Assembly: GCA_963805065.1 (NCBI GenBank)
Contig: CAWDSS010000010.1
Span: 1,048,359-1,112,358, forward strand
Source: Candidatus Omnitrophota bacterium
GTDB lineage: Bacteria; Omnitrophota; Gorgyraeia; Gygaellales; Profunditerraquicolaceae
Reading direction: 5' to 3'
Length of the DNA: 64,000 nt
The first letter of the stretch is position 1, and every line of letters begins with the position of its first letter. The translations under genes and the position numbers were made by a program. Below are positions 1,546 through 56,964 of the stretch, piece by piece. The notes below the pieces were generated by a model. That model was not told the DNA's origin, made no database searches, and saw nothing but the letters and a program-made list of their open reading frames with translations.

Positions 1546-1549
1546 TAAG

Positions 1550-2590
1550 ATGACTGGATACCTCTATAATTTAGCCACGGATAAGCATAAAGGTTTCGTT
1601 TCGGCAATTTTGAAATTAGGTTTATTTATTTTATCCTGTGCCTATGGGCTGGTTATCAGGTTTTTAATTTTATTTAACCGTTTACGGATTTATAAGTTAG
1701 GGGCAGTGGTAATAAGCGTAGGCAATATAACCTTAGGCGGTACAGGTAAAACTGTCATCGTAGAGTATATCTGCCGGTTTTTGCGAGAAAACAACAGGAA
1801 GGTTTCGGTGCTTAGCCGCGGTTATAAAATATCTCATAAAGCAATAGCTGATGAGCCAGGTATGTTACAGGCGAAGCTTAAAGATGTGCCTGTTTTAGTG
1901 GATCTCGACAGGATAAGGTCGGGTAACCTGGCAATAATTAATTATAGCGCCGATACCCTCGTATTGGACGATGGTTTCCAGCAATGGCGCATAGAGAAAG
2001 ATTTGGATATCGTGGTGATTGACGCCACAAATCCATTCGGCAATAATCATATGATACCCAGGGGAATCTTACGCGAGCCGTTATCCTCGCTTAAGCGTGC
2101 CAGTGTATTTGTGCTGACCAAGGTAAATTTTAGCTCTCAGATTGAATCTACGGTTGATTTTTTACGTAAGATTAATCCCTCTGCAGAAGTATTTGAGTCC
2201 CTGCATAAGCCGGTGGGGTTTTATAGCATGAGTAAGCCGCAGGAATTGTTAAGCCCGGAGCGTTTAAAAGGTAAGACTGCGGCTTTATTATGTGGTATCG
2301 GTGACCCCAGCTCATTTGAAAAAATTATCGTAAGCCTGGGGGTTAATGTCGGTTTATCCTTTAGGTTCCCCGACCATTACAATTACACTCAAAAAGATTT
2401 AGATGAAATCGCAAAGAAAATCAGCAATAAAGGCATTGATACCATAATTACTACTGAAAAAGATACAGCTAGACTTCGTAGCTTTCAGCTTTCAGCTTTC
2501 AGCTTTCAGCTTTTAGTGTTGAGGATAACTTTAGCCATAAAAGATGAACAGGGATTCCGTAACAGATTACTTAGCTTATATTCTGTTTAG
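1550..2590 (+). CDS. lpxK: Tetraacyldisaccharide 4'-kinase
   Basis: P-loop SVGNITLGGTGKT, LSRGY, DDGFQ and TTEKD motifs. Contains a GCTTTCA heptamer array near the 3' end. Confidence 0.85.
   Translation: MTGYLYNLATDKHKGFVSAILKLGLFILSCAYGLVIRFLILFNRLRIYKLGAVVISVGNITLGGTGKTVIVEYICRFLRENNRKVSVLSRGYKISHKAIADEPGMLQAKLKDVPVLVDLDRIRSGNLAIINYSADTLVLDDGFQQWRIEKDLDIVVIDATNPFGNNHMIPRGILREPLSSLKRASVFVLTKVNFSSQIESTVDFLRKINPSAEVFESLHKPVGFYSMSKPQELLSPERLKGKTAALLCGIGDPSSFEKIIVSLGVNVGLSFRFPDHYNYTQKDLDEIAKKISNKGIDTIITTEKDTARLRSFQLSAFSFQLLVLRITLAIKDEQGFRNRLLSLYSV
2481..2515 (+). repeat. Heptamer tandem array (GCTTTCA x4 plus GCTTTTA) inside lpxK
   Basis: Read directly: gctttca at 2481, 2488, 2495 and 2502, then gctttta. 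Translated as SFQLSAFSFQLLV. Confidence 0.9.
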
Positions 2591-4490
2591 GCTAATCGGC
2601 AGTATCCTAAGGAAGCTGCCGAAAGGCTTTAGCCTTTTTCTGGGAAGAAGGGTGGGGGACTTATTTTTTTGCCTTGATTGCAAACACAAAGCAATTGCCT
2701 ATTCAAATATAAAAACTGCATTAGGGGATAAGCTGTCAACCGGCCAATTACGTTTGGTTACGCGCAGGTTTTACCGGGCATACGGCCAGAATCTCGCGGA
2801 GATATTTCTTATTCCTAAAATTAACAAGCACTATTTAGATAAATATATAAATATTGAAGGACTTGATAATATTAAACAAGGCTTTGAGAAAGGCAAAGGA
2901 ATAATTTTCCTGGCTGTGCATGAAGGGAGTTGGGAGCTTTCTGGGGTTATGGCCTCTATTTTGGGTGTGCCATTTAATTTTCTATTCAGGGAACAGAAAA
3001 AATTTAAAAGGATAGCTAACCTGCTTAATCAATACCGTACTCAAAAAGGCTGCAAGATAATCCAGCGCTTGGATCAAACCAGGCAATTAATAGAAGTAAT
3101 CAAGAGTAACGAAGCAATAGGCATGACGCTGGATCAGGGAGGAAAAAGCGGCTGCCCGGTGGATTTCTTCGGCCGCAGCGCTTCCATGGCAACCGGGGCT
3201 GTAAGGATAGCCTTAAAATATGAAGCGGTGATACTGCCGATTTTCTTTTGCCGGATACGCGGCCCTTATATTAAACTTTTTATTGATCAGCCGTTTGAAA
3301 TCAAGAATACGGGGAATCGCCAAACAGACATACAGGATAACCTGCAAAGGCTGATACATGTCTTTGAAAAACATATAACCGATTATCCCAGTGAATACCT
3401 TTGGTCTTATAAGATATGGAAACATGGCTTAGACAGGAATATACTCATTTTAAACGATGGCAAGGCTGGACACCTACGCCAATCGCAGGCAGTAGCCGCT
3501 GTTTTAAGCGAATATTTTAAAGAAAATGGCTTAACGGTCAAGGTCGAAACAGAAGAAATACTGTTTAAAAGTAGATTTGCCAAAACGCTTTTGCAATTGA
3601 GCAGTTGCATATCGGGAAAATTCACTTGTCAGGGATGCCTTTCCTGCCTGAAGGTTTTGTTGCACAAAAAAGTTTACGATTCTCTGATAAAGAAGAAACC
3701 TAATGTAGTAATTTCCTGCGGGGCGAGCGTTACGCCGGTTAATTTTTTGATTTCCAGAGAAAACCTGGCAAAATCCATAGTGCTTATGCAGCCGTCAATT
3801 TTGAGTACGGCAAAATTTGATTTAGTGATTGTCCCTGAACATGACAATCCTCCCAAACGTAAAAACATTATTGTTACCGAAGGCGCTTTAAATTTAATCA
3901 ACGAGAATTATTTGAAAGAGCAGGCTGATAAATTATGCAAAACCCTTGGATTAAATAAAGGTTTTTATATCGGTTTACTAATCGGAGGAGACGCCGGGAA
4001 TTTTCACCTCAAGAAAGACACAGTCTTAGAAGTTTTACGGCAGGTCAAATCAGCCTGCGAGAATTTAGGCGCTGATATCCTGGTTACTACTTCCCGGCGC
4101 ACTTCGCGAGAAATTGAAGATACACTAAAAGAGGAACTTCGGGGTTACAGTAACTGTAAAATGCTGATTATTGCCAATGAGAAAAACATCCCTGAAGCTG
4201 TAGGCGGAATCCTCGGCTTAAGCCAGATTGTCATTACATCTGCGGAAAGTATCTCCATGATTTCAGAAGCAGCCAGCAGCAAAAAATACGTATTGGTTTT
4301 TACATCCGCTAACCTGGATAAGAAACACGCCAGGTTCCTGAAGAATTTTTCTCAAAAACAATACATACGCTTGATAGAGAACGCCTCTGATTTAAAAAAG
4401 AATATCGAAGAAGTCTGGTTTGATAAGCCAGGAATTCGCGTTCTCTCTGATAGCGCTGCCATAAAAGAGGCGGTAAAGAGAATTTTCTGA
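2544..4490 (+). CDS. Fusion: lipid A lauroyl/myristoyl acyltransferase (LpxL/HtrB-like) N-terminal half plus ELM1/DUF1022-like C-terminal half
   Basis: N-terminal half has the LpxL-like layout (AVHEGSWEL with the H-x4-E type acyltransferase motif). C-terminal half begins ILILNDGKAGHLRQSQAVA and has DLVIVPEHD, typical of the ELM1/DUF1022 family. Overlaps lpxK by 47 nt. Confidence 0.7.
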   Translation: MNRDSVTDYLAYILFRLIGSILRKLPKGFSLFLGRRVGDLFFCLDCKHKAIAYSNIKTALGDKLSTGQLRLVTRRFYRAYGQNLAEIFLIPKINKHYLDKYINIEGLDNIKQGFEKGKGIIFLAVHEGSWELSGVMASILGVPFNFLFREQKKFKRIANLLNQYRTQKGCKIIQRLDQTRQLIEVIKSNEAIGMTLDQGGKSGCPVDFFGRSASMATGAVRIALKYEAVILPIFFCRIRGPYIKLFIDQPFEIKNTGNRQTDIQDNLQRLIHVFEKHITDYPSEYLWSYKIWKHGLDRNILILNDGKAGHLRQSQAVAAVLSEYFKENGLTVKVETEEILFKSRFAKTLLQLSSCISGKFTCQGCLSCLKVLLHKKVYDSLIKKKPNVVISCGASVTPVNFLISRENLAKSIVLMQPSILSTAKFDLVIVPEHDNPPKRKNIIVTEGALNLINENYLKEQADKLCKTLGLNKGFYIGLLIGGDAGNFHLKKDTVLEVLRQVKSACENLGADILVTTSRRTSREIEDTLKEELRGYSNCKMLIIANEKNIPEAVGGILGLSQIVITSAESISMISEAASSKKYVLVFTSANLDKKHARFLKNFSQKQYIRLIENASDLKKNIEEVWFDKPGIRVLSDSAAIKEAVKRIF

Positions 4491-4494
4491 AACA

Positions 4495-4560
4495 AATAAT
4501 GGGGACGTTTCTATTTTTACGTCTCCAGGTAGGCAGAAAAATAGAAACGTCCCCATTATT
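4495..4560 (+). terminator. Perfect 24-bp inverted repeat hairpin (18-nt loop) followed by TTTTA; candidate terminator or attenuator
   Basis: AATAATGGGGACGTTTCTATTTTT (4495-4518) is the exact reverse complement of 4537-4560. 4501-4508 can alternatively pair with 4519-4526. Confidence 0.5.
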
Positions 4561-4569
4561 TTAGAGACA

Positions 4570-14196: not shown

Positions 14197-15032
14197 TGCG
14201 CCAGGTTAATGTAAAGAATATTTTGATAGGAGACAAGAACCCTTTGGTTTTAATCGCCGGGCCTTGCGTTATTGAATCAGAAAGGCTTTGTTTGGAGGCG
14301 GCTAAAAAAATCAAGGATATTGCCGTAAAATTAAATATCCCGTACATATTTAAATCCAGTTTTGATAAAGCAAACAGAATGTCAATTGATTCTTATCGCG
14401 GCCCGGGCATAAAAAAGGGCTTAGAGGTTTTGCATAAGGTAAAACAGCAATTAAAAGTACCCGTGTTAAGCGACATACACTGCCAGAGGGATATCCCGGA
14501 GGCAGCCGAAGTGTTGGATATAATTCAGATACCGGCGTTTCTCTGTCGCCAGACGGATATTGTAGTTGCTGCTGCCATGACAGGCAAGGTCGTAAATATT
14601 AAAAAAGGCCAATTCCTGGCTCCTTGGGATATACTGCCGATAATCAAAAAGATTGAATCCGCAGGAAATAAATCAATATTGATTACTGAGAGGGGATTTT
14701 GTTTCGGTTATAATAATCTAGTGACTGATTTTAGGAGTTTGCAGATAATGCGCGAGTTTGGTTACCCTGTAATTTATGACGCGACGCATAGCGTACAGCT
14801 TCCGGGAGGCAAAGGAAATACTTCCGGAGGGCAGCGGGAATTTGTGGAAGGACTTTCGCGCGCAGCAGTTGCCTTTGGCTGCGACGGCTTATTCCTGGAA
14901 GTGCATCCTGAGCCGGATAGTGCCCTTTGCGATGGGCCGAATATGATTAATTTGGCTGGCTTGGAAAAACTTTTGAAACAGCTTAAGAAGATAAGCGAAG
15001 CCATAACTTATGGAGCACGTAGTGCGACATAA
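14196..15032 (+). CDS. kdsA: 2-dehydro-3-deoxyphosphooctonate aldolase (Kdo8P synthase)
   Basis: LIAGPCVIES, FKSSFDKANR, DATHSVQLPGG and CDGPN motifs. The last ~9 codons and the stop lie in repeat module M1. Confidence 0.9.
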   Translation: MRQVNVKNILIGDKNPLVLIAGPCVIESERLCLEAAKKIKDIAVKLNIPYIFKSSFDKANRMSIDSYRGPGIKKGLEVLHKVKQQLKVPVLSDIHCQRDIPEAAEVLDIIQIPAFLCRQTDIVVAAAMTGKVVNIKKGQFLAPWDILPIIKKIESAGNKSILITERGFCFGYNNLVTDFRSLQIMREFGYPVIYDATHSVQLPGGKGNTSGGQREFVEGLSRAAVAFGCDGLFLEVHPEPDSALCDGPNMINLAGLEKLLKQLKKISEAITYGARSAT

Positions 15033-15166
15033 GTTATTTGGCTGAACTTACCCAGCACTAATTTTATTTTAGCTAAGCATTTATCAAAATTAGTGCTGGG
15101 TTAATTCGCACAATAACTTACTCATCCCGACACTTCGGGATTCGTAAGTTATGTGCTCATTTAAGA
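15002..15166 (+). repeat. Modular nested-palindrome repeat, full copy (modules M1+M2+M3)
   Basis: M1 at 15002-15037 (stem ATAACTTATG/CATAAGTTAT). M2 at 15044-15107 (perfect 16-bp stem ACCCAGCACTAATTTT/AAAATTAGTGCTGGGT). M3 at 15108-15156. Ends TTAAGA directly before the kdsD ATG. Confidence 0.85.
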
Positions 15167-17566: not shown

Positions 17567-18269
17567 AGGCCTGTCAAAATCATATGACGGAAGAGAAGTA
17601 GTTAAGGGCGTAGATATCCTGGTCAGGCGCGGTGAGATTGTGGGATTGTTAGGCCCTAACGGCGCAGGCAAGACCACAACCTTCTACATGGTAGTCGGTA
17701 TTATACCTCCTAATCGAGGAAAGATTATTTTTGACAACAACGACATTACTAACCTTCCCATACATGAAAGGGCACGCTACGGCATAGGTTATCTTGCCCA
17801 GGAGCCTTCGATATTCACCAAACTTACCGTAGAAGAAAATATCCTTTCTGTTTTGGAGACATTGCCTATAAGTAAGGCAGAGAGAAGACAAAGGCTTAAA
17901 AATTTATTGGAAGAGTTGAATATCTCGCATCTGGCAAAAAATAAGGCAGCTACGTTATCCGGCGGAGAAAGAAGGAGGCTGGAAATTACGCGCGCGCTGG
18001 TTACAAACCCTTCTTTCATATTGTTGGATGAGCCGTTTTCAGGGATAGATCCAATAGTGGTTAATGAGGCACAGGAGATTATCAAGGAGTTAAAAGAAAG
18101 AGGCCTGGGGATTTTACTGACGGATCATAACGTCAGAGAAACCCTCTCCATAACAGACAGGGCTTATTTGATAGCCGAAGGTAAGATTCTTATTTCCGGG
18201 ACAGCTGGAGAATTAATAAATAACCCCCAGGCAAGGCAAGTGTATCTGGGAGAGAAATTCAGGATGTGA
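17547..18269 (+). CDS. lptB: LPS export ABC transporter ATPase
   Basis: Walker [10 protein letters not shown], signature [11 protein letters not shown], Walker B ILLDEPF and a C-terminal VYLGEKF. Confidence 0.9.
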
Positions 18270-18270
18270 C

Positions 18271-18343
18271 CACGGATGACACGGATTATGCACGGATTAC
18301 ACAGTCCAAAGGTATATCCGTGTAATCCGTGGTTAAATCCGTG
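18271..18343 (+). repeat. Triple CACGGAT / triple ATCCGTG symmetric array (long imperfect hairpin)
   Basis: CACGGAT at 18271, 18280 and 18291. Reverse complement ATCCGTG at 18316, 18325 and 18337. The inner 12 bp CACGGATTACAC/GTGTAATCCGTG are perfect. Confidence 0.8.
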
Positions 18344-22744: not shown

Positions 22745-24510
22745 ATAGAAAAGTAAAAAGTAAAAAGCCAAAAGTAAAAAGTTTTGTTATTTTGATTTCA
22801 TTTGTCATTTGTACTTTGTGTTTTGTCATTGGCGTAGCAAATGCTAAGGAAATAGCAATCATCTACTCCGGACAGACCCACGCCATGATTTATCCCTGCA
22901 GTTGTCCTTTTGACCCCGAAGGCGGAGTTGCACGCAGGGCAACCGTGGTTAAACAGATACGAAAAGAATATCCCGATAACCTGCTTTTAGATTCCGGAGA
23001 TTTCTTTGCTGGAGGACTGATGGATGAATACACGCAAAATACCCAGCTTGACATCCAGCGTTCACTGGTAAATCTTAGGGCAATGGAGTTGATGAAATAT
23101 GACGCCGCAGCAATAGGTGACGACGAATTTAATTTCGGCAGCAAAATTTTGCGGGAGAATATTGCCAAGACGAAATTAACCTTTTTATCCTGCAATTTAA
23201 AATCCGACAAAGTATCTTCCTCTATGATTAAAGAAGTCTCTGGGGTAAAAATCGGCATTATCGCAGTAACTACGGTTTTGGCAAAACAAAAATCCGACGA
23301 CCTCGAATTTAATGATCCTAAAAGTGCAGTTTACACGGCAGTAGAAAATCTGCATAAGCAAAATGTAAATATTATTATAGTCTTAAGCCATTTGGCAGAA
23401 AACGAAAGCCTGAATTTGATTAATGATGTAGGGGGAATAGATATTTTAATCGAAGGCCATAGCGCGGCAAATAATAAGGAACCATCTACTAAGATAGGCA
23501 ATACCTTAGTGTTAAGGCCCTCTTGGGAGGGTAAGAGCCTGCAGGCCTTAATTCTTTCGGTTGAAGGCGATAAAATAAAGACATACAAACTTAGAGAGAG
23601 TAAATTATCGAATGCGGTTGCCGATGACCCGCAAATTATTTCTATATTACCCAAATGTTTTTCTGACAATAATTGTAAAAAAGAAGGGTTTGTGGGTTTA
23701 TGTAAAGACCCCGGAGATTTAAAATCCCGGTGTATTTTTAACAAAGCCAATCAGGTGAAGTTATTAATTGTTACGCCTAAAGATTGCCTTGTTTGCGAGA
23801 CAGCACCTATCTCGGATTTCTTAAAGAGGCAATTTCCCGGCTTAAGCATTTCTTACATGTATTATCCTGATAAACGCGTAAACTCACTTATAAAGGATTT
23901 TAACGTCACGGGACTACCGGCTTATTTTCTGGGAAAAGAAGTAGAAATGGAAGGAAATTTTAATGCCCTGAAAGGAAACTTAACGCTAAAAGGGCAATAT
24001 TATATGGTTGCGCCTTATTTTAGCGGGTTCTCTTATTTTTTAAACAGGCAGAAACAAAAAGGAAAATTGGACTTATTTTTAAGCTTGTTTGATAAAGCTA
24101 CGCCACAGCTTTTGACAGTTATAAAGGAATTCAATCCTCAAATACATTTTCTGGCAATTGAGGAATCAGGTAAGTTCGATGCAGCTTCGGGTAGAAGAGA
24201 AGTTGAGGAAGATATGCGTGCAGTATGTGTGCAACAATACTACCCAAAGCATTTCTGGGATTATATCAGCTGCAGGTCAAACAATATCGATAGTTCATGG
24301 TGGGAGGATTGCGCGCAAGGCATTGATTTAAGTAAAATTTTTACATGCGCCAGGGGAAACGAAGGATATTCTTTGTTGAAGGCAAATACCGCAATCACCA
24401 AAGAAGCCCACATCATGATGGGTCCGGCTTATTTACTGGATAACCTTGAAATATTCAGCTCTAGGGGTGCTCCTTCTAAGGATGAACTTAAGAAAATAAT
24501 AAAGAGGTAA
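22741..24510 (+). CDS. Exported 5'-nucleotidase/metallophosphoesterase-like protein with degenerate metal motifs; Cys-rich C-terminal half
   Basis: DSGDFFAG, IGDDEFNFG (in place of GNHEFD), VLSHLA and ILIEGHS align to calcineurin-like phosphoesterase motifs. The signal peptide is encoded by heptamer repeats. Confidence 0.45.
   Translation: MNRKVKSKKPKVKSFVILISFVICTLCFVIGVANAKEIAIIYSGQTHAMIYPCSCPFDPEGGVARRATVVKQIRKEYPDNLLLDSGDFFAGGLMDEYTQNTQLDIQRSLVNLRAMELMKYDAAAIGDDEFNFGSKILRENIAKTKLTFLSCNLKSDKVSSSMIKEVSGVKIGIIAVTTVLAKQKSDDLEFNDPKSAVYTAVENLHKQNVNIIIVLSHLAENESLNLINDVGGIDILIEGHSAANNKEPSTKIGNTLVLRPSWEGKSLQALILSVEGDKIKTYKLRESKLSNAVADDPQIISILPKCFSDNNCKKEGFVGLCKDPGDLKSRCIFNKANQVKLLIVTPKDCLVCETAPISDFLKRQFPGLSISYMYYPDKRVNSLIKDFNVTGLPAYFLGKEVEMEGNFNALKGNLTLKGQYYMVAPYFSGFSYFLNRQKQKGKLDLFLSLFDKATPQLLTVIKEFNPQIHFLAIEESGKFDAASGRREVEEDMRAVCVQQYYPKHFWDYISCRSNNIDSSWWEDCAQGIDLSKIFTCARGNEGYSLLKANTAITKEAHIMMGPAYLLDNLEIFSSRGAPSKDELKKIIKR
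22747..22830 (+). repeat. 12-heptamer block (5 A-rich xAAAAAG-type, then 7 T-rich TTTGNNN-type) encoding the signal peptide
   Basis: AGAAAAG TAAAAAG TAAAAAG CCAAAAG TAAAAAG | TTTTGTT ATTTTGA TTTCATT TGTCATT TGTACTT TGTGTTT TGTCATT. 84 nt = 28 codons (RKVKSKKPKVKSFVILISFVICTLCFVI). Confidence 0.85.
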
Positions 24511-24726
24511 GTGAGGACATAATTTATGGAGCGAACACCCGGCTTTATCGGAACAGCCGGTGTGCCGCTTGTGCGGCAAGCGAACATAAATTATTCGTCC
24601 GAACTTACCCAGCACTAATTTTGATAACAATAGACTAAAAGAAAATTAGTGCTGGGTTAAATTCGCACAATAACTTATGTCGGAGAATAGAAATTAATGC
24701 TCCATAAGTTATGTGCTCATTTAAGA
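24511..24726 (+). repeat. Modular nested-palindrome repeat, expanded copy (M1 with extra inner hairpins, M2, M3)
   Basis: GAGGACATAATTTATGG...ATAAATTATTCGTCC. M2 stem identical to copy A (24607-24622/24642-24657). M3 GCACAATAACTTATG...CATAAGTTATGTGC. Ends TTAAGA before the RBS and ATG 24736. Confidence 0.85.
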
Positions 24727-25976: not shown

Positions 25977-27387
<1,411 letters not shown>

Positions 27388-42642: not shown

Positions 42643-43621
42643 TGAAAAAAGTCATATTAAGCGGAATGCGGCCTACCGGGAAATTACATTTGGCCATTTT
42701 GTGGGCGCATTGGATAATTGGGTAAAGTTGCAGGATGAGTACGATTGTTTTTTTATGGTTGCTGATTGGCATGCGTTGATGTCGGAATATGAACACCCGC
42801 AAAGCTTAAAGGAAAATATGATTGATAATGTGATGGATTGGCTCGCCTGCGGAATGTCCCCTGAAAAATCCACTATTTTTATCCAGTCGCACATAAAAGA
42901 ACACCTGGAGCTATACATGGTCTTTTCCTTAGTCACGCCGTTAGGGTTGCTGGAACGCTGCCCTACTTATAAAGAGCAGCTGCGTGAAATCACCAACCGC
43001 GATTTAAGCAACTATGCTTTTTTAGGCTATCCGGTTTTACAGGCAGCGGATATCCTATTATATAAAGCAGAGGTTGTTCCCGTCGGCGAAGACCAGCTTC
43101 CGCATCTGGAGTTGACCCGCCAGATAGTAAGGAAATTCAATCATCTGTATAAAAAAGAAATTTTCCCTGAGCCAAAGGCATTATTGACTAAGGCCAACAG
43201 GCTCCTGGGGCTTGACGGAAGGAAGATGAGCAAGAGCTACGATAATTATATTGCCCTTTCTGAAGAGCCTGAGAACATACGTAAAAAAGTTATGAATATG
43301 TTTACTGACCCCACGAGAATCAGGGTTACTGATCCGGGCCATCCGGATAAATGCAATGTCCACAACTATTACGCAGTATTTGCGCCTGAAAGGAAAAAGG
43401 AAATTGATGAACGCTGTCGCAAATCAGAGATTGGTTGCACTGATTGCAAGAAAGAGCTGGCGGGTATTCTGATTAAATTCTTGGAGCCTATTCAGGAAAA
43501 ACGAAGAGACTTGCTTAAGGATAAGAACAAGATATTTGATATCCTGGATAGGGGTGAGAAAAAAGCCTCTTTCGTTTCGCATAAGACCATGGAAGAAGTC
43601 AAAGGGGTAATAGGCCTATAA
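42642..43621 (+). pseudogene. trpS: Tryptophanyl-tRNA synthetase with an apparent 1-nt deletion in the HIGH motif (true pseudogene or sequencing error)
   Basis: ATG 42642 (TAATG with the infB stop) gives [17 protein letters not shown], then goes out of frame and stops at 42723-42725. The downstream frame from 42701 is a complete TrpRS (KMSKS present). Restoring one G in TTGGCC at about 42691-42694 gives TGKLHLGHFVGALDNW. Confidence 0.8.
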
Positions 43622-44379
43622 TGAGTTATAAAATAAAACTAGAAATATTTGAAGGGCCGTTGGATTTATTGTTGTACCTGGTTAAGAAAGACCATCTTAA
43701 TATCTACGACATACCTATTTCCACAGTCACCGAACAATACCTTCAGTATCTAAACTTAATGCAGCTTTTGGATTTAAATATCGCCGGAGAGTTCCTGGTG
43801 ATGGCCGCTACTCTTATGCAGATAAAATCTGCAATGCTCCTGCCTGCACAGGAAGGCCAAACTCAAGAAGAACTCCAAGACCCGCGGCAAGAATTGGTTA
43901 AGCGTTTATTGGAATATGAAAAATTTAAACAAATAGCTGAAACGCTTCGCCAGAAAGAGACAGACCAGCGGGAGGTCTTTAAGCGGCCGCAGGTAGAAGC
44001 GGATAGGCAAGCGCTTACTGAAAAAGAAGTTTATTTTGAAGCAAGCATATTTGATTTAATCAATGCGTTTTCTGCGGCACTCAAAGACGTACCCAAAGAA
44101 GTATTTTATGAGGTCATAAAAGATGAATTTACCATAGAAGAAAAAGTCCATCAGATTCTCCATGTCTTACTGGAAGTTAATTCCCTAAAGTTATCAGATT
44201 TATTCGGCAAGGCAAAAAATAAAATTGAAATAATTGTCACGTTTTTGGCTATTCTAGAGTTAGCCAAGATGAGAGAAATTGTGGCAATTCAGTCGTCATT
44301 ATTCCAGGAAATAGAGATTACCAGAAACAAAAACAATATTACACCCTATGAGCGAAGAGATAAGACAGGCCCTGTTTAA
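43621..44379 (+). CDS. scpA: Segregation and condensation protein A
   Basis: FEGPLDLLLYLVKK N-terminus and ILELAK... C-terminal region. Confidence 0.85.
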   Translation: MSYKIKLEIFEGPLDLLLYLVKKDHLNIYDIPISTVTEQYLQYLNLMQLLDLNIAGEFLVMAATLMQIKSAMLLPAQEGQTQEELQDPRQELVKRLLEYEKFKQIAETLRQKETDQREVFKRPQVEADRQALTEKEVYFEASIFDLINAFSAALKDVPKEVFYEVIKDEFTIEEKVHQILHVLLEVNSLKLSDLFGKAKNKIEIIVTFLAILELAKMREIVAIQSSLFQEIEITRNKNNITPYERRDKTGPV

Positions 44380-45394
44380 GGGTAGCACTCCCATAAAAGA
44401 AACCAAAGAAACCGAAGAGGATGTTGTTTTAAATATTTCTCTTAGGCCCAAGAAGTTAGTCGAGTTTATCGGCCATAAGGAAATAGTGGATAACTTAAAG
44501 ATTTCCATTCAGGCAGCTAAACAGAGAAAAGAGCCATTGGAGCATGTTTTATTAAGCGGCCCTCCGGGATTAGGCAAGACTTCGCTTTCGCATATAATCG
44601 CCCATGAAATGAATACCAAGATTACCGCCACAAGCGGACCGGCTATTGAGCGCGCAGGCGACCTGATTGGCATATTAACTAACTTAGAGAATGGCGACAT
44701 CCTGTTTATCGATGAGATTCACCGGCTTTCTAAAGTCGTGGAAGAATTCCTTTATCCTGCCATGGAAAGTTTTCAGATTGATTTTGTAATAGATAAAGGG
44801 CCGTATGCCAAAACCATAAAATTTAATCTCAAACCTTTTACGTTAGTGGGCGCAACCACAAGAACCGGGCTCTTGGCAGCACCTTTAAGAGGTAGATTCG
44901 GGATATTCTATAATCTGGATTTTTACAAAGTTGAAGACCTGGCTAAAATCATCAAGAATTCTGCAAAAATCTTGGGTATTGAAATTGATGAACAAGCTTG
45001 TTTAGAAATAGGCAGGCGTGCCCGCGGAACTCCTCGCGTTGCGAATAGGTTATTACGCAGGATTCGCGATTATGCGCAGGTGGCTAAAATTAAGATAATA
45101 ACCTCTGAGGTTACGGCAAAAACCCTGGATGAATTGGGTATTGATAAGGCTGGACTTGATGATTTAGACCGCAAGGTCTTAAAACTTGTTTTAGAATCTT
45201 ATGGCGGCGGGCCGGTGGGCGTTGAAGCGCTGGCAGCCAGCCTCAATGAAGAAGTTGATACAATTGCAGATACCGTCGAGCCGTATTTGCTGAAAGCCGG
45301 TTACCTTAAGCGCACATCCCGCGGCCGACTCGCCACAAAGCTTGCATTCGAACATTTCGGCATAAAATACGAGAAACAAGAAGAATTATTCTAG
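44348..45394 (+). CDS. ruvB: Holliday junction branch migration helicase RuvB
   Basis: LRPKKLVEFIGH, GPPGLGKTSL, DEIHRL and GTPRVANRLLRR motifs. Confidence 0.95.
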   Translation: MSEEIRQALFKGSTPIKETKETEEDVVLNISLRPKKLVEFIGHKEIVDNLKISIQAAKQRKEPLEHVLLSGPPGLGKTSLSHIIAHEMNTKITATSGPAIERAGDLIGILTNLENGDILFIDEIHRLSKVVEEFLYPAMESFQIDFVIDKGPYAKTIKFNLKPFTLVGATTRTGLLAAPLRGRFGIFYNLDFYKVEDLAKIIKNSAKILGIEIDEQACLEIGRRARGTPRVANRLLRRIRDYAQVAKIKIITSEVTAKTLDELGIDKAGLDDLDRKVLKLVLESYGGGPVGVEALAASLNEEVDTIADTVEPYLLKAGYLKRTSRGRLATKLAFEHFGIKYEKQEELF

Positions 45395-45437
45395 TTTCAT
45401 TTTGCTTCAGGGTTTTGTTCGCGTGCTGAAGTTATTA

Positions 45438-45609
45438 TTTTGCGGGTCCTGCCGAGGCTTGTTTTCGCAGCATCGCTCGATTTTCCCCAGCGTGGAAAAT
45501 CTTCGCTCAAGCGGAAGCCTTCGCTCTTGGATACATATTTAACGAGGCAAACCATGCCCGCTCAGGCTTCCTTATGTGCTGCTCAAATCAAGCCTCGTCA
45601 CCCGCAAAT
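45438..45609 (+). mobile_element. GC-rich MITE-like repeat, copy G1 (about 170 bp, terminal inverted repeat GCGGGTCCTG...CACCCGC)
   Basis: Termini TTTTGCGGGT / ACCCGCAAA. The interior aligns by eye along its length with the reverse complement of 46345-46519. Confidence 0.75.
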
Positions 45610-45653
45610 TACATTCAAAAACAAATTTTAAATTACAAACAAGCAAAATAGAG

Positions 45654-46274
45654 ATGGTAGTGAGAATCTTACAAAATTGCGAGGTAATATTGAAAAAAAT
45701 AAAAATGATAGCAAAACGCCATTTAAAATCGATCATATTGCAGATAAAAGAGTTTAGAAAAAATATTCTTTTATTTCGTGAGCCAATTTTGATATCTTCC
45801 TTATTGGCAATCAATTATTATATATGGTATGTCTGGGGGCAAATAAATATTAAAAATTTCCATAATTTTATTGCTATTACAATAGTCATAACGTATTTTG
45901 TTCTAAGCCATAAATTGTCGGAATCTTTTATAATCAAGTTCTGGGAATATGTATCTCTTTCGAGAGTGCCAAATAAGCTAACTGCAACTTTAGGTGTCAT
46001 AGATAGAATTGTTTATGCAGCTTGTTTTGTAATACAACAGTATACACTTATTGGTGTATGGTTAGGCATTAAAGTAGCTGCAAGATTAGTTGAATTCAAA
46101 GGCGTTGAGCTAACTGGTGATTACAAGAAAGATGAAGAGAAAATTAGGCCATTAGGAGAAAGAAAAAACATATTTATAATCGGTAATTTGATTTCATTAC
46201 TACTAGGAATTGCTGGTGGATATTTAATTATTATTTTGTTTGGTTTCCCCGCGCCTAAGTTTTTCAAAGTTTAA
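45654..46274 (+). CDS. Orphan multi-pass membrane protein (hypothetical), in an AT-rich segment between inverted G1/G2 repeats
   Basis: About four hydrophobic segments (ILISSLLAINYYIWYVW; FIAITIVITYFVL; IVYAACFVIQQYTLIGVWLGI; IFIIGNLISLLLGIAGGYLIIILFGF). No family recognised. Start uncertain (45654 or 45705). The track start at 45576 lies inside repeat G1. Confidence 0.45.
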   Translation: MVVRILQNCEVILKKIKMIAKRHLKSIILQIKEFRKNILLFREPILISSLLAINYYIWYVWGQINIKNFHNFIAITIVITYFVLSHKLSESFIIKFWEYVSLSRVPNKLTATLGVIDRIVYAACFVIQQYTLIGVWLGIKVAARLVEFKGVELTGDYKKDEEKIRPLGERKNIFIIGNLISLLLGIAGGYLIIILFGFPAPKFFKV

Positions 46275-46344
46275 AAATGGATGGTCCATTTGTTATATAA
46301 TTTTATCTATAAATGAATCTGGGGTATTTCCGAGCGCCTTGTAT

Positions 46345-46519
46345 ATTAGCGGGTGGCTTGGGGTGATTTTGAGCGAGGCATGGAGGCGAGGAGCGGGCAC
46401 GGATGCCCCTCGTAAAACAAACCTGGCAGAGCGACGAAGCCGAGATGAGCGAAGTTTTGCCACGCCGGGGCAAAACGAGCGTCCTCGCGAAAAACACACC
46501 AAGACAGGACCCGCGTAAT
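46345..46519 (-). mobile_element. GC-rich MITE-like repeat, copy G2 (inverted relative to G1)
   Basis: The reverse complement begins GCGGGTCCTGTCTTGG and ends CCCCAAGCCACCCGC. It shares blocks with G1: TTTTCGC, CGCTCG-TTTT-CCC, GCGTGG-AAA-CTTCGCTCA, TTTAACGAGG/TTTTACGAGG, TGCCCGCTC and GCTCAAA-TCA. Confidence 0.75.
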
Positions 46520-46561
46520 GTAGGGCGCGAGAAAAACGACAGATTCATTAAATATAAATCT

Positions 46562-47104
46562 ATGAAACTACTTTTACATACTTGTTGTGCGCCGTGTTTG
46601 ATTTATCCTTTGGAGAAATTAAGGGAAGAAGGTTTCGAGGTCAAGGCCTTATTTTATAATCCCAATATTCATCCCCTGCCTGAATATAACGCCAGGAAAC
46701 ATTCAGTAGAGCATCTGAGCCAGAAAATCGGGGTAGAAGTAATTTATCCTGATTATGAGCCTAAAGAATATTTCCGGGCAGTGAATATGATGGAAGATAA
46801 ACTCCAGAGATGCCCCATATGCTGGTATCAACGATTAAAGGTCACGGCGCAACTGGCAAGAGAAAAAGGATTCACACATTTTTCTACTACTTTGTTGGTT
46901 AGTCCCTATCAGGACATTGAATTAATCCATAAGATAGGCCGTGACCTCGCGGAAATTGAGCGCGTGCAATTTTATTTTGAAGATTTCCGCCCGGGTTTTA
47001 GAAAGGCGCATGACGAGGCAAAAGCCGAAGGCCTATATTGTCAGAAATATTGCGGTTGTATTTATTCGGAATTGGAAAGATGCAGGAAATCGGGAAAGCA
47101 CTAA
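46562..47104 (+). CDS. queH: Epoxyqueuosine reductase QueH (DUF208)
   Basis: LLLHTCCAPCLIYPLEKL and YNPNIHP, with a later Cys-containing segment (RCPICW). Start moved to ATG 46562, since the track start lies in repeat G2. Confidence 0.8.
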   Translation: MKLLLHTCCAPCLIYPLEKLREEGFEVKALFYNPNIHPLPEYNARKHSVEHLSQKIGVEVIYPDYEPKEYFRAVNMMEDKLQRCPICWYQRLKVTAQLAREKGFTHFSTTLLVSPYQDIELIHKIGRDLAEIERVQFYFEDFRPGFRKAHDEAKAEGLYCQKYCGCIYSELERCRKSGKH

Positions 47105-47295
47105 TAATATTTGGAGCCATTTTACTTGGTGCAGGCTTATTACTTACATTTTTTAATAAAATACCGTATTTAGGAAAATTGCCGGGTGATATATTAATTC
47201 AAAAAAAGGATTTTACTTTTTATTTTCCTTTGGCGACCTCAATATTAATCAGCATTATCCTTTCTTTAATATTTTGGCTATGGCCTCGCCGGTGA
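47080..47295 (+). CDS. DUF2905-family small membrane protein
   Basis: IPYLGKLPGDILIQKKDFTFYFPLATSILISIILSLIFW is typical of DUF2905. Overlaps the queH end by 25 nt. Confidence 0.6.
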   Translation: MQEIGKALIIFGAILLGAGLLLTFFNKIPYLGKLPGDILIQKKDFTFYFPLATSILISIILSLIFWLWPRR

Positions 47296-47311
47296 TTTAA
47301 AATTTTACAAA

Positions 47312-48445
47312 ATGAAAATAAAACAAATTATAGGGATGATTGTGTTGGTTCTGGGTTCTGGGTTCTGGGTTCTGGGTTCTTTTGCCCTGCAGCAAAGCAC
47401 AGTAAGGGTACTTATTATAGATAAAACGCGATCTCTAAGCCTTAAACTCTTAGGGGATTATGAGATAATCAATTTAAAAGACAGCCAGATTTTATCCAGC
47501 GGCAGGGACCTTAAAACAACAGTAATGGGTTATTATAAAGGTATATTACTTGCCGGAAATAATTTCTCTGCGCAAAAACTTTTGCTTAAAGTGCAAAGCC
47601 AGGACGCAGTCATTATTAACGGCCGCTCATTCAGAGGAGATATCCAGGTGTCTCGAGACGGAGAACTCCTTTCAGTTATAAATTGTATCGATTTAGAAGA
47701 TTATATCAAGGGGATACTTTACCACGAAGCTTCGCATTATTGGCCGATGGAGGCTTTAAAGGCGCAGGCAATAGTTTGTCGTACCTACGCTATTTACGAG
47801 ATGCAGGAGAATAGAGATAAGGATTTTGATGTAACCAGCGATATATATTCCCAAGTTTACGGAGGAAAGACCTCCGAGCGTTTTCGCACCAATGAAGCAG
47901 TTGATGCTACTAGGGATGAGGTTTTAACTTATCAGGGAAAAGTTTTTCCCGCATATTTTCATGCTACTTGTGCAGGTCACACAGAAGATGCATCTCGTCT
48001 TTGGAACATTAATATAGCGCCGCTTAAAGGAGTACTGTGTGACTATTGCAAAGACTCTCCCCATTTTAACTGGCATTTGGTTTTAGACCGGGGGGAGTTG
48101 AGGCAAAGGCTGGTTAATTCAGGTTACTCGATGGGCATGATAAAAAATATCGAGATTTTAGGAAAGGATAATTCTGGAAGGATTACAGATCTAAAAATAT
48201 CCACCATAACCAAGGAAGTAAAAATATCTGCAAAGGATTTTCGTAACATCATCGGGCCCAATGAAATCAAAAGCACAAATTTTGTAGTTAGTTTCGCCGG
48301 TGAAGACTTTGTATTTGAAGGTTTTGGCTGGGGACATGGCGTAGGCTTATGCCAGTGGGGAGCTTATTTTATGGCTACGCAAGGTAAAACCGCAGAACAA
48401 ATCCTAAAGTATTATTATCCTCAAAGCAATGTTAAAACTTTCTGA
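47312..48445 (+). CDS. SpoIID/LytB-domain protein (peptidoglycan remodelling)
   Basis: DYIKGILYHEASHYWPMEALKAQAIVCRTYA, HATCAGHTE and GHGVGLCQWGA motifs. The signal peptide contains a GGTTCTG array. Confidence 0.8.
   Translation: MKIKQIIGMIVLVLGSGFWVLGSFALQQSTVRVLIIDKTRSLSLKLLGDYEIINLKDSQILSSGRDLKTTVMGYYKGILLAGNNFSAQKLLLKVQSQDAVIINGRSFRGDIQVSRDGELLSVINCIDLEDYIKGILYHEASHYWPMEALKAQAIVCRTYAIYEMQENRDKDFDVTSDIYSQVYGGKTSERFRTNEAVDATRDEVLTYQGKVFPAYFHATCAGHTEDASRLWNINIAPLKGVLCDYCKDSPHFNWHLVLDRGELRQRLVNSGYSMGMIKNIEILGKDNSGRITDLKISTITKEVKISAKDFRNIIGPNEIKSTNFVVSFAGEDFVFEGFGWGHGVGLCQWGAYFMATQGKTAEQILKYYYPQSNVKTF
47347..47381 (+). repeat. Heptamer array (GGTTCTG x4 plus GGTTCTT) in the SpoIID-like signal peptide
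   Basis: Read directly. Encodes [11 protein letters not shown] within the N-terminal hydrophobic segment. Confidence 0.9.
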
Positions 48446-49421
48446 TTTTGATTATTATTTGCCAAAGGAATTAATCGCGCAGTATCCTCTTTTAGTGCGT
48501 GATGCAGCAAGGCTATTGGTTTTAAACAGAAAAAAGCAAACCATAGAGCATCGCCTGTTTCATGGCATTTTAGATTACCTTAACAAAAATGACTTAATAG
48601 TTTTAAATGATACTAAGGTTTTGCCTTGCCGCCTTATCGGTAAAAGGTCCACAGGGGGCAGAGTAGAAATATTGCTCTTAAATAGAAAAGGCGGATTTAA
48701 TTTTAATGCCATGATAAAACCCAGCCGCCTGAATTTAGGAGAAAAAATAATCTTTAACGGTGGTGAAACCTTTGCAGAGGTTACCTCTAAGAATGAAGTC
48801 ACTTTTAATGTAGATAATTTAGACACTATTTATAATTTAGGCTCCATGCCTTTACCTCCATACATAAAAAGAGACAGCGAAGATATAGATAACATTTACT
48901 ATCAGACGGTTTACGCGAGCCGAGAGGGCGCTATTGCGTCTCCTACAGCGGGTTTGCATTTCACGAAAGAAGTACTTAAAATAATAGAAGCTCGCGGCAT
49001 TAATTTTGCTAATATAACGTTGCATGTGGGTGTCGGGACATTCAAGCCGGTAAAATCAGAAGATATAAGACAACACAAAATGGAGTCAGAATATTTTAGA
49101 ATCCCGAAAGATTCAATTCAAGCCATGGAGAAAACTAAACAAGAAAACGCTCGAATAATTGCAGTGGGAACCACAAGCCTGCGTACCCTGGAAACTTTTG
49201 CTAACGGAGTAGCAGAGGGCTTTACGGATTTATTTGTATATCCAGGTTATAAATTTAAATTAGCGGATTGCCTTTTGACTAACTTTCATTTACCCAAAAC
49301 TACGTTATTTATGCTGGTTTGCGCTTTTGCCGGAGAGGCTTTTGCCAAAAAAGCATATCAGGAAGCCATAGATAAAAAATACAGGTTTTATAGCTATGGT
49401 GATGCCATGCTAATTGTTTGA
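48429..49421 (+). CDS. queA: S-adenosylmethionine:tRNA ribosyltransferase-isomerase
   Basis: LSDFDYYLPKELIAQYP, PLPPYIKR, AGLHFT and VGTTSLRTLE motifs. Confidence 0.95.
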   Translation: MLKLSDFDYYLPKELIAQYPLLVRDAARLLVLNRKKQTIEHRLFHGILDYLNKNDLIVLNDTKVLPCRLIGKRSTGGRVEILLLNRKGGFNFNAMIKPSRLNLGEKIIFNGGETFAEVTSKNEVTFNVDNLDTIYNLGSMPLPPYIKRDSEDIDNIYYQTVYASREGAIASPTAGLHFTKEVLKIIEARGINFANITLHVGVGTFKPVKSEDIRQHKMESEYFRIPKDSIQAMEKTKQENARIIAVGTTSLRTLETFANGVAEGFTDLFVYPGYKFKLADCLLTNFHLPKTTLFMLVCAFAGEAFAKKAYQEAIDKKYRFYSYGDAMLIV

Positions 49422-49422
49422 T

Positions 49423-50667
<1,245 letters not shown>

Positions 50668-50673
50668 AATTTT

Positions 50674-50736
50674 GCTTTCAGTCATCAGTCGTCAGCTTAC
50701 AGCTGATAGCTGATAGCTGAAAGCTGAAAGCTGAAC
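50674..50736 (+). repeat. Nine-heptamer palindromic element filling the tgt-trmD gap up to the ATG
   Basis: GCTTTCA GTCATCA GTCGTCA GCTTACA GCTGATA GCTGATA GCTGAAA GCTGAAA GCTGAAC, then ATG. 50674-50697 pairs imperfectly (about 19 of 24) with 50701-50724. Confidence 0.9.
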
Positions 50737-51423
50737 ATGCGCATTGATATTATCACTATTTTCCCCAAGATGTTTGAGCCTGTATTAAATGAATCTATAA
50801 TCAAGCGGGCACAGCACAAAGGAAAGGTAAAGATTTGTCTGCACGACTTAAGAGATTTTAGCGCTGATAAGCATAGAAAAGTGGATGACCGGCCATTCGG
50901 CGGAGGTTCAGGGATGGTAATGAAGCCGGAGCCGATATTCAAGGCAGTAGAGTATATAAAAGTTAAAAGTCAAAAGCCAAAAGTCAAAACTAAGGTTGTT
51001 CTGTTATGTCCCCAAGGTAAAAAATTAACTCAAAAAACTTGTAAGAAATTAGCAAAATACAAACATTTGATTTTAATTTGCGGCCATTACGAAGGAGTTG
51101 ATGAGAGAGTAAGGCACTATTTAGCAGATGAAGAAATTTCTATCGGCGATTATGTTTTGACTGGCGGAGAACTGCCGGCCATGGTCTTGGTAGATGCTAT
51201 TGTCAGGCTTATCCCGGGAGTTTTAGGCGATAAAAATTCCTTGAATTTTGAGTCATTTGAGAGTAATCTATTAGAATATCCGCACTATACAAGACCCGCG
51301 AAATTCAGGGACATGTCAGTGCCTCGGGAACTCCTTTCCGGAGACCATAAGCAAATTGAAAATTGGAGAAAACAACAAGCCATAAACAGGACCAAACTTA
51401 GAAGACCTGATCTTCTAAAATGA
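50737..51423 (+). CDS. trmD: tRNA (guanine37-N1)-methyltransferase
   Basis: [36 protein letters not shown] and [12 protein letters not shown] motifs. Confidence 0.95.
50958..50992 (+). repeat. Heptamer array AAAAGTT-AAAAGTC-AAAAGCC-AAAAGTC-AAAACTA inside trmD
   Basis: Read directly. Encodes [11 protein letters not shown] in a variable loop. Near-identical to 58885-58923 and to the A-arm at 22747-22781. Confidence 0.85.
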
Positions 51424-54467: not shown

Positions 54468-54567
54468 CTTAAAACGCAAATCGCAAAAGGCAAAACTGGA
54501 ACCCAAAACTAAAAACGTTTTAAGTTTTACGTTGCAGTTTTGAGTTTTGACTTTTTCGTTTTGAGTC
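54468..54567 (+). repeat. AAAANNN heptamer hairpin element centred on AAAACGTTTT
   Basis: The arms meet at the palindrome 54512-54521. The right arm 54516-54558 is the reverse complement (42 of 43) of 56870-56912. Confidence 0.85.
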
Positions 54568-56863: not shown

Positions 56864-56964
56864 GCAAAACGTAAAAGTCAAAACTCAAAACTGCAACGTA
56901 AAACTTAAAACGTTTTGAATTTTGCGTTTAAGTTTTGCGTTTTGAGATTTGCCTTTTGAGTTTG
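56864..56964 (+). repeat. AAAANNN heptamer hairpin element centred on AAAACGTTTT
   Basis: Centre at 56907-56916. The left arm 56870-56912 matches the reverse complement of 54516-54558. Confidence 0.85.

Follow-up and report, generated by a model that had tools for sequence, protein, structure and literature searches.

The analysis of a 64,000-nucleotide stretch of DNA from a Candidatus Omnitrophota bacterium (assembly GCA_963805065.1, contig CAWDSS010000010.1, positions 1,048,359 to 1,112,358 of the forward strand; hereafter the window, meaning the whole stretch) indicates that G1, G2 and G3, three GC-rich repeats among its housekeeping genes, are members of a family of hairpin-forming imperfect palindromes that appears not to have been described before. 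This GC-rich family, here called E, is found in many Omnitrophota. On balance we lean towards the reading that E is a new mosaic repeat family of the REP/BIME/ERIC kind which acts at the level of DNA and marks a slot for gene cassettes, and is not part of a classical composite transposon. Specifically, E would act as DNA in the form of extruded hairpins or cruciforms, or of single strands folded during replication, and the cargo would turn over by recombination at or between the paired structures, either by breakage and repair at the palindromes or through a candidate structure-specific recombinase. The elements themselves would then not be the ends of a transposon of the classical type.

In this family, compensatory change clearly preserves a large branched palindrome on both strands, a pattern that points to the secondary structure of the DNA, and not to an RNA, as the target of selection. 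To our knowledge, such selection has rarely been documented outside integron attC sites and single-strand replication origins. E furthermore offers a sequence-defined marker for sites at which strains swap small orphan genes inside conserved housekeeping operons, and since a 28-nt pattern or a covariance model suffices to find this marker, existing metagenomes allow a direct test of cassette turnover. As far as we know, the Omnitrophota are uncultured organisms with very small cells in which gene exchange is poorly known.

A family of palindromes in two size classes

G1, G2 and G3 are colinear in alignment and have common ends, GCGGGTCCTG on the 5′ side and CACCCGC on the 3′ side. An initial annotation, made from the letters of the window alone, had proposed one repeat family with common termini and colinear internal blocks, and the alignment confirms this at the positions it gave. 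G1 and G2 are 70% identical, which is not background similarity. G3 keeps both ends and lacks an apical part of about 100 nt, so the relationship of full-length to internally deleted copy, also proposed at the outset, stands, and it recurs family-wide as two size classes, a long one of about 154-214 nt and a short one of about 59-69 nt. An extra-long form of about 240 nt consists of a long E seated in the apex of a palindrome of a second family, X. Each of the three window copies folds as one long hairpin closed by the stem GCGGGU/ACCCGC, and the stems reach 3-4 bp beyond GCGGG/CCCGC (TTTA...TAAA). The predicted folds far exceed those of shuffled sequence in stability for G1 (RNA fold -68.9 kcal/mol, z -5.9; DNA fold z -4.9), G2 (-63.2 kcal/mol, z -3.0) and G3 (-41.4 kcal/mol, z -8.2). 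Covariance models built for the short (R1) and long (R2) forms score 156.6 bits for G1 and 162.4 bits for G2 with R2, and 87.9 bits for G3 with R1. Within the window, the exact decamer GCGGGTCCTG occurs in G1, G2 and G3 only, and with one mismatch allowed it matches seven times against 1.6 expected from shuffles. A covariance-model search of the whole window revealed no E copy beyond these three; a weak R1 match at 18272-18342 was considered as a fourth copy and rejected, being a different palindrome built of heptamer repeats.

The family was searched with a 28-nt pattern of the 5′ end, GCGGGTCCTGNCNNGGNNTGTTN{1,2}TCGC, over species-representative genomes, metagenomes and viral contigs. In the species-representative genomes the pattern identifies 46 loci, at one or two per genome as a lower bound on copy number, and nearly all of these are labelled Candidatus Omnitrophota, with a few Planctomycetales and one Margulisiibacteriota. 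The metagenomes contribute at least 120 loci among the matches listed, and the two models together recover about 170 copies in about 1 Mb of the loci (numbered here with the prefix L). One match, L137, on a contig of 65% GC, was set aside as a chance hit. Further copies therefore exist in numbers, and the idea of a local burst of miniature inverted-repeat transposable elements (MITEs), which the initial annotation had entertained, gives way to a family spread over many Omnitrophota. Further copies, element-free sites in relatives and G1/G2 similarity, on which that annotation had staked its proposal, are all present.

E does not correspond to a known RNA or to a described repeat in the resources that were consulted. 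Against Rfam 15, neither the window nor 14 loci have a match that reaches the gathering score, and a search of 45000-50000 up to an E-value of 10 turned up nothing relevant; ARAGORN reports no tRNA or tmRNA. On these two nulls, identity with a tRNA, a tmRNA or a known RNA was rejected. Likewise, an origin in phages or plasmids was rejected, as the pattern has no match in the viral contigs and G1 has none in plasmids. A search of the literature on Omnitrophota repeats, hairpins and RNA motifs, and for the decamer itself, yielded no description of E; the one Omnitrophota paper mentioning RNA motifs says of these only that Rfam was used to annotate them.

Pairing is conserved equally on both strands

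The short form of about 65 nt consists of a core hairpin, P0-P1 (UUUA-GCGGGU/ACCCGC-UAAA), a CCU bulge and the stems P2-P4. The long form of about 165 nt adds two apical hairpins to this core, which creates a three-way junction. The apex of E thus ranges from a small hairpin to a three-way junction, and E has single unpaired bases as well as the CCU bulge, which is conserved. In an alignment of 20 long-form sequences, 28 of the 46 predicted pairs carry compensatory double changes. Extended to 110 copies in an alignment fitted to the model, 95.6% of cells pair, and double changes occur at 37 of the 46 pairs (812 cells). None of 500 shuffles of the 110-copy alignment reaches any of five measures, and sliding the partners lowers pairing to 30-49%. 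The short form shows 97.6% pairing and eight compensatory pairs. Every helix of the fold is maintained through compensatory change.

The mismatched cells bear on the strand to which this constraint applies. Overall, G·U accounts for 90 of the non-Watson-Crick cells and A·C for 72; split by orientation to the genes, the same-strand copies have 30 of each and the opposite-strand copies 48 and 37, respectively, in a comparison of about 160 mismatched cells. Selection for a fold in transcribed RNA would be expected to admit G·U but not A·C on that strand, and no such bias is seen. The pairing constraint is equal on both strands, and E is a modular branched palindrome.

The bases that flank E continue this pattern. 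They are reverse-complementary, most commonly as TTTA|TAAA and also as TT|AA, GA|TC, CA|TG, TG|CA and GC|GC, with a stem-type identity of 73-81% over the first 2-4 nt (73% for four bases) against 55% when partners are shuffled. Scored as direct repeats, four flank bases are 31% identical against 30% with shuffled partners. Because the flanks are reverse-complementary and their direct identity lies at the shuffled level, the outer 3-4 bases extend the stem and do not represent a target duplication. Direct flank repeats of at least 4 bp occur in 3 of 125 elements, two of the three being the palindrome TTAA, and no target duplication of 3 bp or more was found at E flanks; the target-site duplications expected from the initial annotation are thus replaced by flanks that extend the stem. 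About half of the copies carry TA at both ends, which is compatible with a 2-bp TA duplication, TA being self-complementary.

Signals of a transcription unit were also sought. No conserved promoter motif is seen upstream of E, the 3′ flank is A-rich and not U-rich, and a consensus scan for promoters and terminators at the elements, G1, G2 and G3 included, gave nothing. An intrinsic or bidirectional terminator was rejected, as UUUA precedes and UAAA follows the hairpin with no U-tract on either strand.

A slot for exchangeable genes on the 3′ side

The general architecture is E, a slot and then X, where X sometimes carries an inverted E; the inverted pair of G1 and G2 is one version of this arrangement. 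Some slots are empty, at a length of 4-105 nt, while others contain 0.5-3 kb of low-GC DNA, as a rule with one orphan open reading frame (ORF) of 150-230 aa that in many cases begins with a membrane helix; the contents differ between strains that have common flanks. The 3′ side of E is where X, a third palindrome family Y, an inverted E or foreign DNA accumulates.

Several lines of evidence define this polarity. With duplicate loci removed, neighbouring E pairs within 3.5 kb are convergent, with their 3′ ends inward, in 13 of 18 cases (three direct, two divergent; binomial p = 3e-5 against an expectation of 25%). Convergent long-form pairs are either separated by 34-105 nt, as in the inverted doublets of L097 (34 nt), L074 (65 nt), L034 (81 nt) and L004 (104 nt), or enclose 0.6-3.2 kb at 29-34% GC in surroundings of 40-45%. 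Long E copies tend to low GC in their 3′ flank. Family X is a branched palindrome of about 230 nt in its full form with the 5′ arm AAATGAAnCTGGCGGnTTTTCGAGCG, and has no Rfam match. Of 25 cases, 23 have the X arm on the 3′ side of E. In 16 of these the arm shares the orientation of E and is no more than 60 nt away, and in four it is separated from E by 530-710 nt with a single-ORF insert, three of these inserts having 29-34% GC and one 41%. X arms flank the right-hand E in L073, L083 and L074, and the same arrangement is found in L024.

In the window, G2 lies between the two X arms, which are detected there as an inverted repeat, and the whole forms a joint hairpin of about 240 nt (the DNA fold of 46305-46556 pairs 46312-46549, z -4.95). 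The orthologous X right arm stands just upstream of queH in L036, a relative of the window, where ruvB, one long E, about 35 nt, an X palindrome and queH follow one another, that is, with an empty slot.

Comparison of related loci reveals how the contents change. On the left, L083 and L073 agree in the flank (90%), in the base of E, down to an unusual A...T closing pair, and in about 20 nt beyond this base; on the right they agree in the X arm, E and the flank (95%). Neither the apical domain of the left E nor any part of the cargo is related between them. Similarly, L145, L012, L140 and L086 have a flank gene in common (79-87% identity) and a different slot content in each. The members of a pair are 64-78% identical and usually of different subtypes. 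The cargo proteins are mutually unrelated and mostly 150-230 aa long, with a hydrophobic helix at the start of several of them. Pfam and PHROGs recognise HTH_17, DUF6941 and a lipoprotein family in the enclosed ORFs, and neither finds a transposase or recombinase in any cargo; the possibility that the cargo genes are themselves the mobility enzyme was rejected on these grounds. The suggestion of a hotspot between housekeeping genes has therefore held up, with the bracketed AT-rich gene as a strain-variable insert at a recurrent site.

Further features of the two companion families were recorded. The arms of family X read AAATGAAnCTGGCGGnTTTTCGAGCGAATGGAGnTTTTAGCCA (5′) and TGAGCGAGAAAAnCGACAGnTTnATT (3′), with occurrences in L036 (about 1520-1704, minus strand), L066, L081, L103, L108, L118, L119 and other loci; a short form of X is present in L020, and an inverted E or a Y element may sit in the X apex. 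Family Y, again a branched palindrome, is about 195 nt long, begins TTTTGCGGAGGGATTTGTGAGCGTGCATTAGAAAATTTTTGGCA and is exemplified by L159 3730-3935 on the minus strand (fold -79.4 kcal/mol, z -8.1). Its 5′ arm motif occurs in 19 loci (for example L010, L039, L071, L072, L093, L116 and L165), usually following E, or E and then X, on the 3′ side, and it has no Rfam match. In L052, positions 2285-2470 on the plus strand hold a chimera that starts as E, continues as such to the end of the first inner hairpin and then goes over into the 3′ part of X; it shows that families E and X have recombined.

Additionally, a low-GC islet of about 3 kb in L016 (940-4024) has a long E on one side and only a TCCGCTAAAA remnant on the far side. 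Besides orphans, it carries two ORF6N (KilA-N/Rha-like) genes and a gene for a probable BrnT-like toxin adjacent to one for a CopG/BrnA-type antitoxin. In six loci, proteins with an ORF6N domain are encoded near E.

Genomic setting and persistence

The spacers that harbour E separate co-directional genes, and E may point either way within them (41 long copies on the same strand as the genes, 54 on the opposite strand). The neighbours of E are ordinary housekeeping genes, and no gene family is constant among them. Some junctions have kept an element across distant species. The junction of cysS and tmk carries E in eight loci, long in six and short in two, whose CysS proteins are 45-86% identical, and in three further loci E lies instead between the upstream gene (probably cysE) and cysS. 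In L005, one of the cysS-tmk loci, a complete long E with UUA/UAA flanks lies within a short E, in its loop, and the 3′ half of this short E is decaying. The queA-tgt junction is occupied by a short form in the window and by a long form in L148, whereas L130 has a 4-nt spacer there with no element. The L130 spacer and the element-free ruvB-queH spacer of L148 are the empty sites in relatives that the initial annotation had called for.

The ruvB-queH spacer of L148 contains an ORF for a 119-aa multi-pass membrane protein (3034-3393, minus strand). This ORF has ordinary GC and no element beside it. Two lineages have thus arrived by different routes at a small membrane-protein gene in the ruvB-queH junction.

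Copies in the same genome are usually not each other's nearest relatives: G1 and G2 are, as given above, less alike than G2 and the copies in L003, L016 and L025 (80%). These last three copies are 98-99% identical to one another, with the similarity limited to the element of about 170 nt and with different neighbours.

Weighing the explanations

Several points weigh against a DNA-level repeat that marks cassette slots. The near-identical copies of L003, L016 and L025 at unrelated sites show that a transposition-like process exists. E is not symmetric: one strand conserves five GCUC motifs and several unpaired segments, among them the CCU bulge and the CCCAGCGUGG loop, and such conservation is typical of functional RNAs or of single strands bound by proteins. 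The 110-copy alignment, by its fitting, favours the modelled pairs, and the small number of mismatched cells leaves the G·U versus A·C test with moderate power. As all loci were fetched by the 5′ pattern, the invariance of the first 28 nt is partly ascertainment; partner copies found by the model alone do vary at the 5′ end (ACGGGT, GCAGGG, GTGTCT). Some metagenome loci are duplicates or close relatives, of which eleven were removed by eye. Not every enclosed segment fits, either: the convergent short-form pairs in L049 and L061 enclose ordinary housekeeping genes, the L086 cargo has 40% GC, and the sole distant homologue of the window cargo, at 47% identity (context L167-L169), has no E nearby, even with filters off.

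The classical alternative, that E is a non-autonomous element with terminal inverted repeats moved by a DDE transposase and that G1, the ORF and G2 moved as one unit into the ruvB-queH spacer, was the leading idea of the initial annotation and now appears improbable. It would account for the inverted-repeat ends, the coexistence of full-length and internally deleted forms, the presence or absence of E at orthologous sites, the nesting of one element in another and the 98-99% identical copies at unrelated sites, and TA at both ends of half of the copies would fit a TA duplication. The rare direct flank repeats (the 3 in 125) and the reverse-complementary flanks speak against it, as does the covariation of internal helices far from the ends, which binding by a transposase does not explain. 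The pattern matches only once or twice per genome, and one junction is occupied across CysS divergence down to 45%. On near-identical copies the observations point both ways, the three copies of the window being about 70% alike and those of L003, L016 and L025 98-99%. No transposase was found in the cargo or the neighbour clusters, and none of IS200/IS605 type in about 1 Mb around the roughly 170 copies, where approximate TnpA sequences of IS200 and ISHp608 gave no tblastn match in 1.07 Mb. A composite in particular should have matching ends, whereas pair members differ in subtype and are only 64-78% identical, the cargo of L083 and L073 was replaced while the elements stayed, and no composite is seen at a second site. 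The same initial annotation had offered a family of structured small RNAs instead, and part of this idea survives. E as a small RNA gene, or as a hairpin of the operon transcript that stabilises, processes or insulates mRNA, is unlikely in our estimation, a little less so than the transposon. The structure is real: covariation in a multi-helix fold with a three-way junction is very strong, loop and bulge nucleotides are conserved, E always lies in transcribed spacers between co-directional genes and is retained at the same operon junction across distant species, and the many other intergenic hairpins in the 64-kb run of same-strand genes suggest that hairpins punctuate transcripts. An RNA function as such is weakened, given that Rfam, the promoter search and the search for a U-tract are negative, orientation to the genes is about even, and G·U is not favoured over A·C in either orientation class. 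Convergent pairing, nesting and foreign DNA on the 3′ side are furthermore left unexplained by an RNA function.

A dedicated site-specific cassette system, in which E and X hairpins serve as folded recombination sites, like integron attC or the attP(+) of CTX phage, for a tyrosine (Xer-like) or HUH recombinase that inserts and excises single-gene cassettes, is about as improbable as the transposon. The imperfect palindrome with its conserved bulge and variable apical domain, the cargo of mostly one orphan ORF (0.5-0.8 kb), its exchange at fixed boundaries between conserved elements and a structural constraint equal on both strands, as expected for DNA, all argue for it. In addition, three loci have the start of an xerC/D orthologue at a distance of 28-70 nt from the 5′ end of E, namely L050 (1251-2105, minus strand), L052 (1409-2254, minus strand) and L071 (2142-2909, plus strand), and L160 encodes a divergent Xer-like tyrosine recombinase (3570-4529, minus strand) 167 nt away on the 5′ side of a short E that has an AT-rich secreted-protein ORF on its 3′ side. 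Conversely, the integron core sites are absent, most E copies are single and lie in housekeeping operons without cargo, and most slots have no recombinase beside them. The sites are convergent, while direct repeats would be expected after a single crossover with a circular cassette. As for the Xer genes, the three xerC/D loci probably represent one orthologous junction, and among some 155 loci the proximity of such genes to E could have arisen by chance; it is a lead, not yet evidence. A broader form of the idea, in which E, X and perhaps Y are the folded-DNA recombination sites of a candidate structure-specific recombinase (Xer-like or HUH) and together make up a new chromosomal single-gene cassette system of Omnitrophota, is speculative and rather doubtful, if the least unlikely of the proposals set beside the mosaic-repeat reading. 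Such a system would be an analogue of the integron that uses branched palindromes, and its slots in housekeeping operons would receive low-GC genes that are strain-specific and encode membrane or secreted proteins. Should a dedicated recombinase exist, the cassette system would be of a new kind.

Relation to known repeat and cassette systems

The known systems nearest to E are REP/BIME/REPIN mosaics and hairpin repeats of the ERIC or Correia type, and in content and bracketing the slot is similar to integron cassettes and pdif modules. Like REP, BIME and REPIN sequences of proteobacteria, E consists of imperfect palindromes in transcribed intergenic spacers in either orientation, forms inverted doublets (with spacers of 34-105 nt) and mosaics of several motif types (E, X and Y), and combines long-term persistence with occasional spread. 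REP units, in contrast, are 20-40 nt long with a conserved GTAG head and number hundreds of copies, whereas E units are branched, 59-252 nt long, begin with UUUAGCGGGUCCUG, match the pattern once or twice per genome and occur three times in the window. The cognate RAYT of REP sequences, a Y1 HUH transposase, has no counterpart seen for E in about 1 Mb of loci, and E doublets enclose foreign genes, which REP doublets do not. The ERIC (IRU) elements of enterobacteria and the Correia/NEMIS elements of Neisseria resemble E as hairpin-forming intergenic repeats of about 100-170 nt that are conserved across genera in transcribed regions and have shorter variants by internal deletion and longer ones by insertion at internal sites. 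Neither ERIC nor Correia elements are similar to E in sequence. Correia elements have a TA duplication and defined terminal inverted repeats, where E has only an ambiguous TA, and E differs from both in its three-way junction with covarying internal helices and in its polar 3′-side slot for foreign genes.

Integron attC sites resemble E in that structure is conserved rather than sequence, with bulged bases and a variable apex, and integron cassettes resemble the E slots in that most hold one short orphan ORF and differ between strains. The attC core sites have the consensus R′′ RYYYAAC and R′ GTTRRRY, where E reads ATTTAGC and GCTAAAT, a match of 6 of 7 positions each with AGC/GCT in place of AAC/GTT. 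Integrons form co-oriented arrays by intI and attI, whereas E sites are convergent in the 13 of 18 pairs and mostly stand alone in operons, and no integrase or attI was found beside E slots, except for the Xer-like gene in L160. The pdif modules of Acinetobacter plasmids likewise hold accessory genes, including toxin-antitoxin pairs and orphans, within inverted site-like repeats and exchange them without a transposase. Their sites are 28-bp XerC/XerD sites without secondary structure, in contrast to the branched chromosomal palindrome of 65-240 nt; a comparison by eye of E with the arms of E. coli dif gave only 6 of 11 matches. As a structural analogy only, the T-shaped hairpins of parvovirus inverted terminal repeats (ITRs) and CTX attP(+) are, like E, DNA of about 150 nt with a stem and two small hairpins. 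Parvovirus ITRs also occur as inverted copies at both ends of a short cargo, and the repeated GCTC motifs of E recall the Rep-binding element of adeno-associated virus. E differs in that its cargo lacks a replication protein, viral contigs have no matches, and its paired ends are 64-78% identical against near-identical ITRs.

The window locus

The window encodes, all on the plus strand and in this order, a class I (Trp/Tyr-type) tRNA synthetase, ScpA, RuvB, the G1-ORF-G2 segment, QueH, a SpoIID-like protein, QueA, G3, Tgt and TrmD (Table 1). The ruvB region is syntenic with L036, L148 and L056. The start of queH given in the table, in place of 46403, is supported by the Pfam QueH match, which begins at residue 56 of the longer ORF, and the window QueH is 64% identical to the L036 protein over 180 aa. 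The queA gene ends at 49421 and tgt starts with the ATG at 49513, leaving a spacer of 91 nt for G3. With G2 before queH and G3 before tgt, a queuosine-related riboswitch or leader was considered; it was rejected, as the family adjoins unrelated genes (cysS, tmk, ilv, arg, xerC/D and others) in both orientations.

Table 1 Features of the ruvB-queH and queA-tgt region of the window (window coordinates)
Feature	Position	Strand	Description
ruvB	44348..45394	+	Upstream housekeeping gene; Pfam RuvB_N, AAA_lid_4, RuvB_C; stop 48 nt before G1 core
G1, long-form E	45438..45609 (core 45442-45605)	+	Stem subtype CCGAGGCUUG/CAAGCCUCG; 3′ end toward insert
AT-rich insert (cargo)	45610..46310	.	Slot between G1 and the X/G2 hairpin
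Orphan ORF	45654..46274	+	206 aa, predicted hydrophobic segments (from translation); alternative TTG start 45690 gives a 194-aa form
X left arm	46311..46347	+	AAATGAATCTGGGGTATTTCCGAGCG...; pairs with 46515-46549 and extends G2 stem
G2, long-form E	46345..46519 (core 46349-46514)	-	Stem subtype UCUUGG/CCAAG; in apex of X palindrome; 3′ end toward insert
X right arm	46515..46549	+	...GCGCGAGAAAAACGACAGATTCATT; ends 13 nt before queH start codon
queH	46562..47104	+	Downstream housekeeping gene; Pfam QueH; true start ATG 46562
G3, short-form E	49423..49497 (core 49428-49492)	+	In queA-tgt spacer, same orientation as genes

The content of the ruvB-queH slot in the window is, judged from its translation, a predicted orphan membrane protein of 206 aa. 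The interval 45606-46348 has 29% GC against 45% and 41% on either side, and Pfam, PADLOC and PHROG assign the ORF to no family, in line with the AT-rich segment and single orphan membrane-protein gene that had been described there. Only two homologues were found among 5.8 billion proteins, one being the distant protein mentioned above. The other, 99% identical and 194 aa long, lies on a 1.19-Mb contig and probably comes from the same genome as the window; a look-up of its exact sequence gave no record.

Other repeats in the window

All large ORFs of the window lie on the plus strand, and the cumulative GC skew climbs steadily in the sampled range 43000-51000. Hairpin-forming repeats often mark gene boundaries here. 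Intergenic palindromes built of heptamers (AAAACxx-type, AGCTGAA, CACGGAT), distinct from E, lie in same-strand spacers at 54468-54565, 56865-56963, 25990-26104, 50674-50735 and 18262-18340. Heptamer tandems also occur within genes, where a 7-nt unit is unusual: (GGTTCTG)x4.9 at 47347-47380, close to the N-terminal end of the SpoIID-like gene, (GGTTCTG)x4.4 and next to it, downstream, (GAAAACC)x3.4 at 50028-50082 inside tgt, in a stretch that does not align with L130, and (AAAAGTC)x4.6 at 50958-50989 in trmD. A nested palindrome family has two copies, at 15002-15153 and 24508-24723, with inner arms GAACTTACCCAGCACTAATTTT / AAAATTAGTGCTGGGTTAA and CATAACTTATGGAGC-like outer arms. Finally, a perfect 25-bp inverted repeat with an 18-nt loop (AAATAATGGGGACGTTTCTATTTTT / AAAAATAGAAACGTCCCCATTATTT) is located at 4494-4561, between two plus-strand ORFs.

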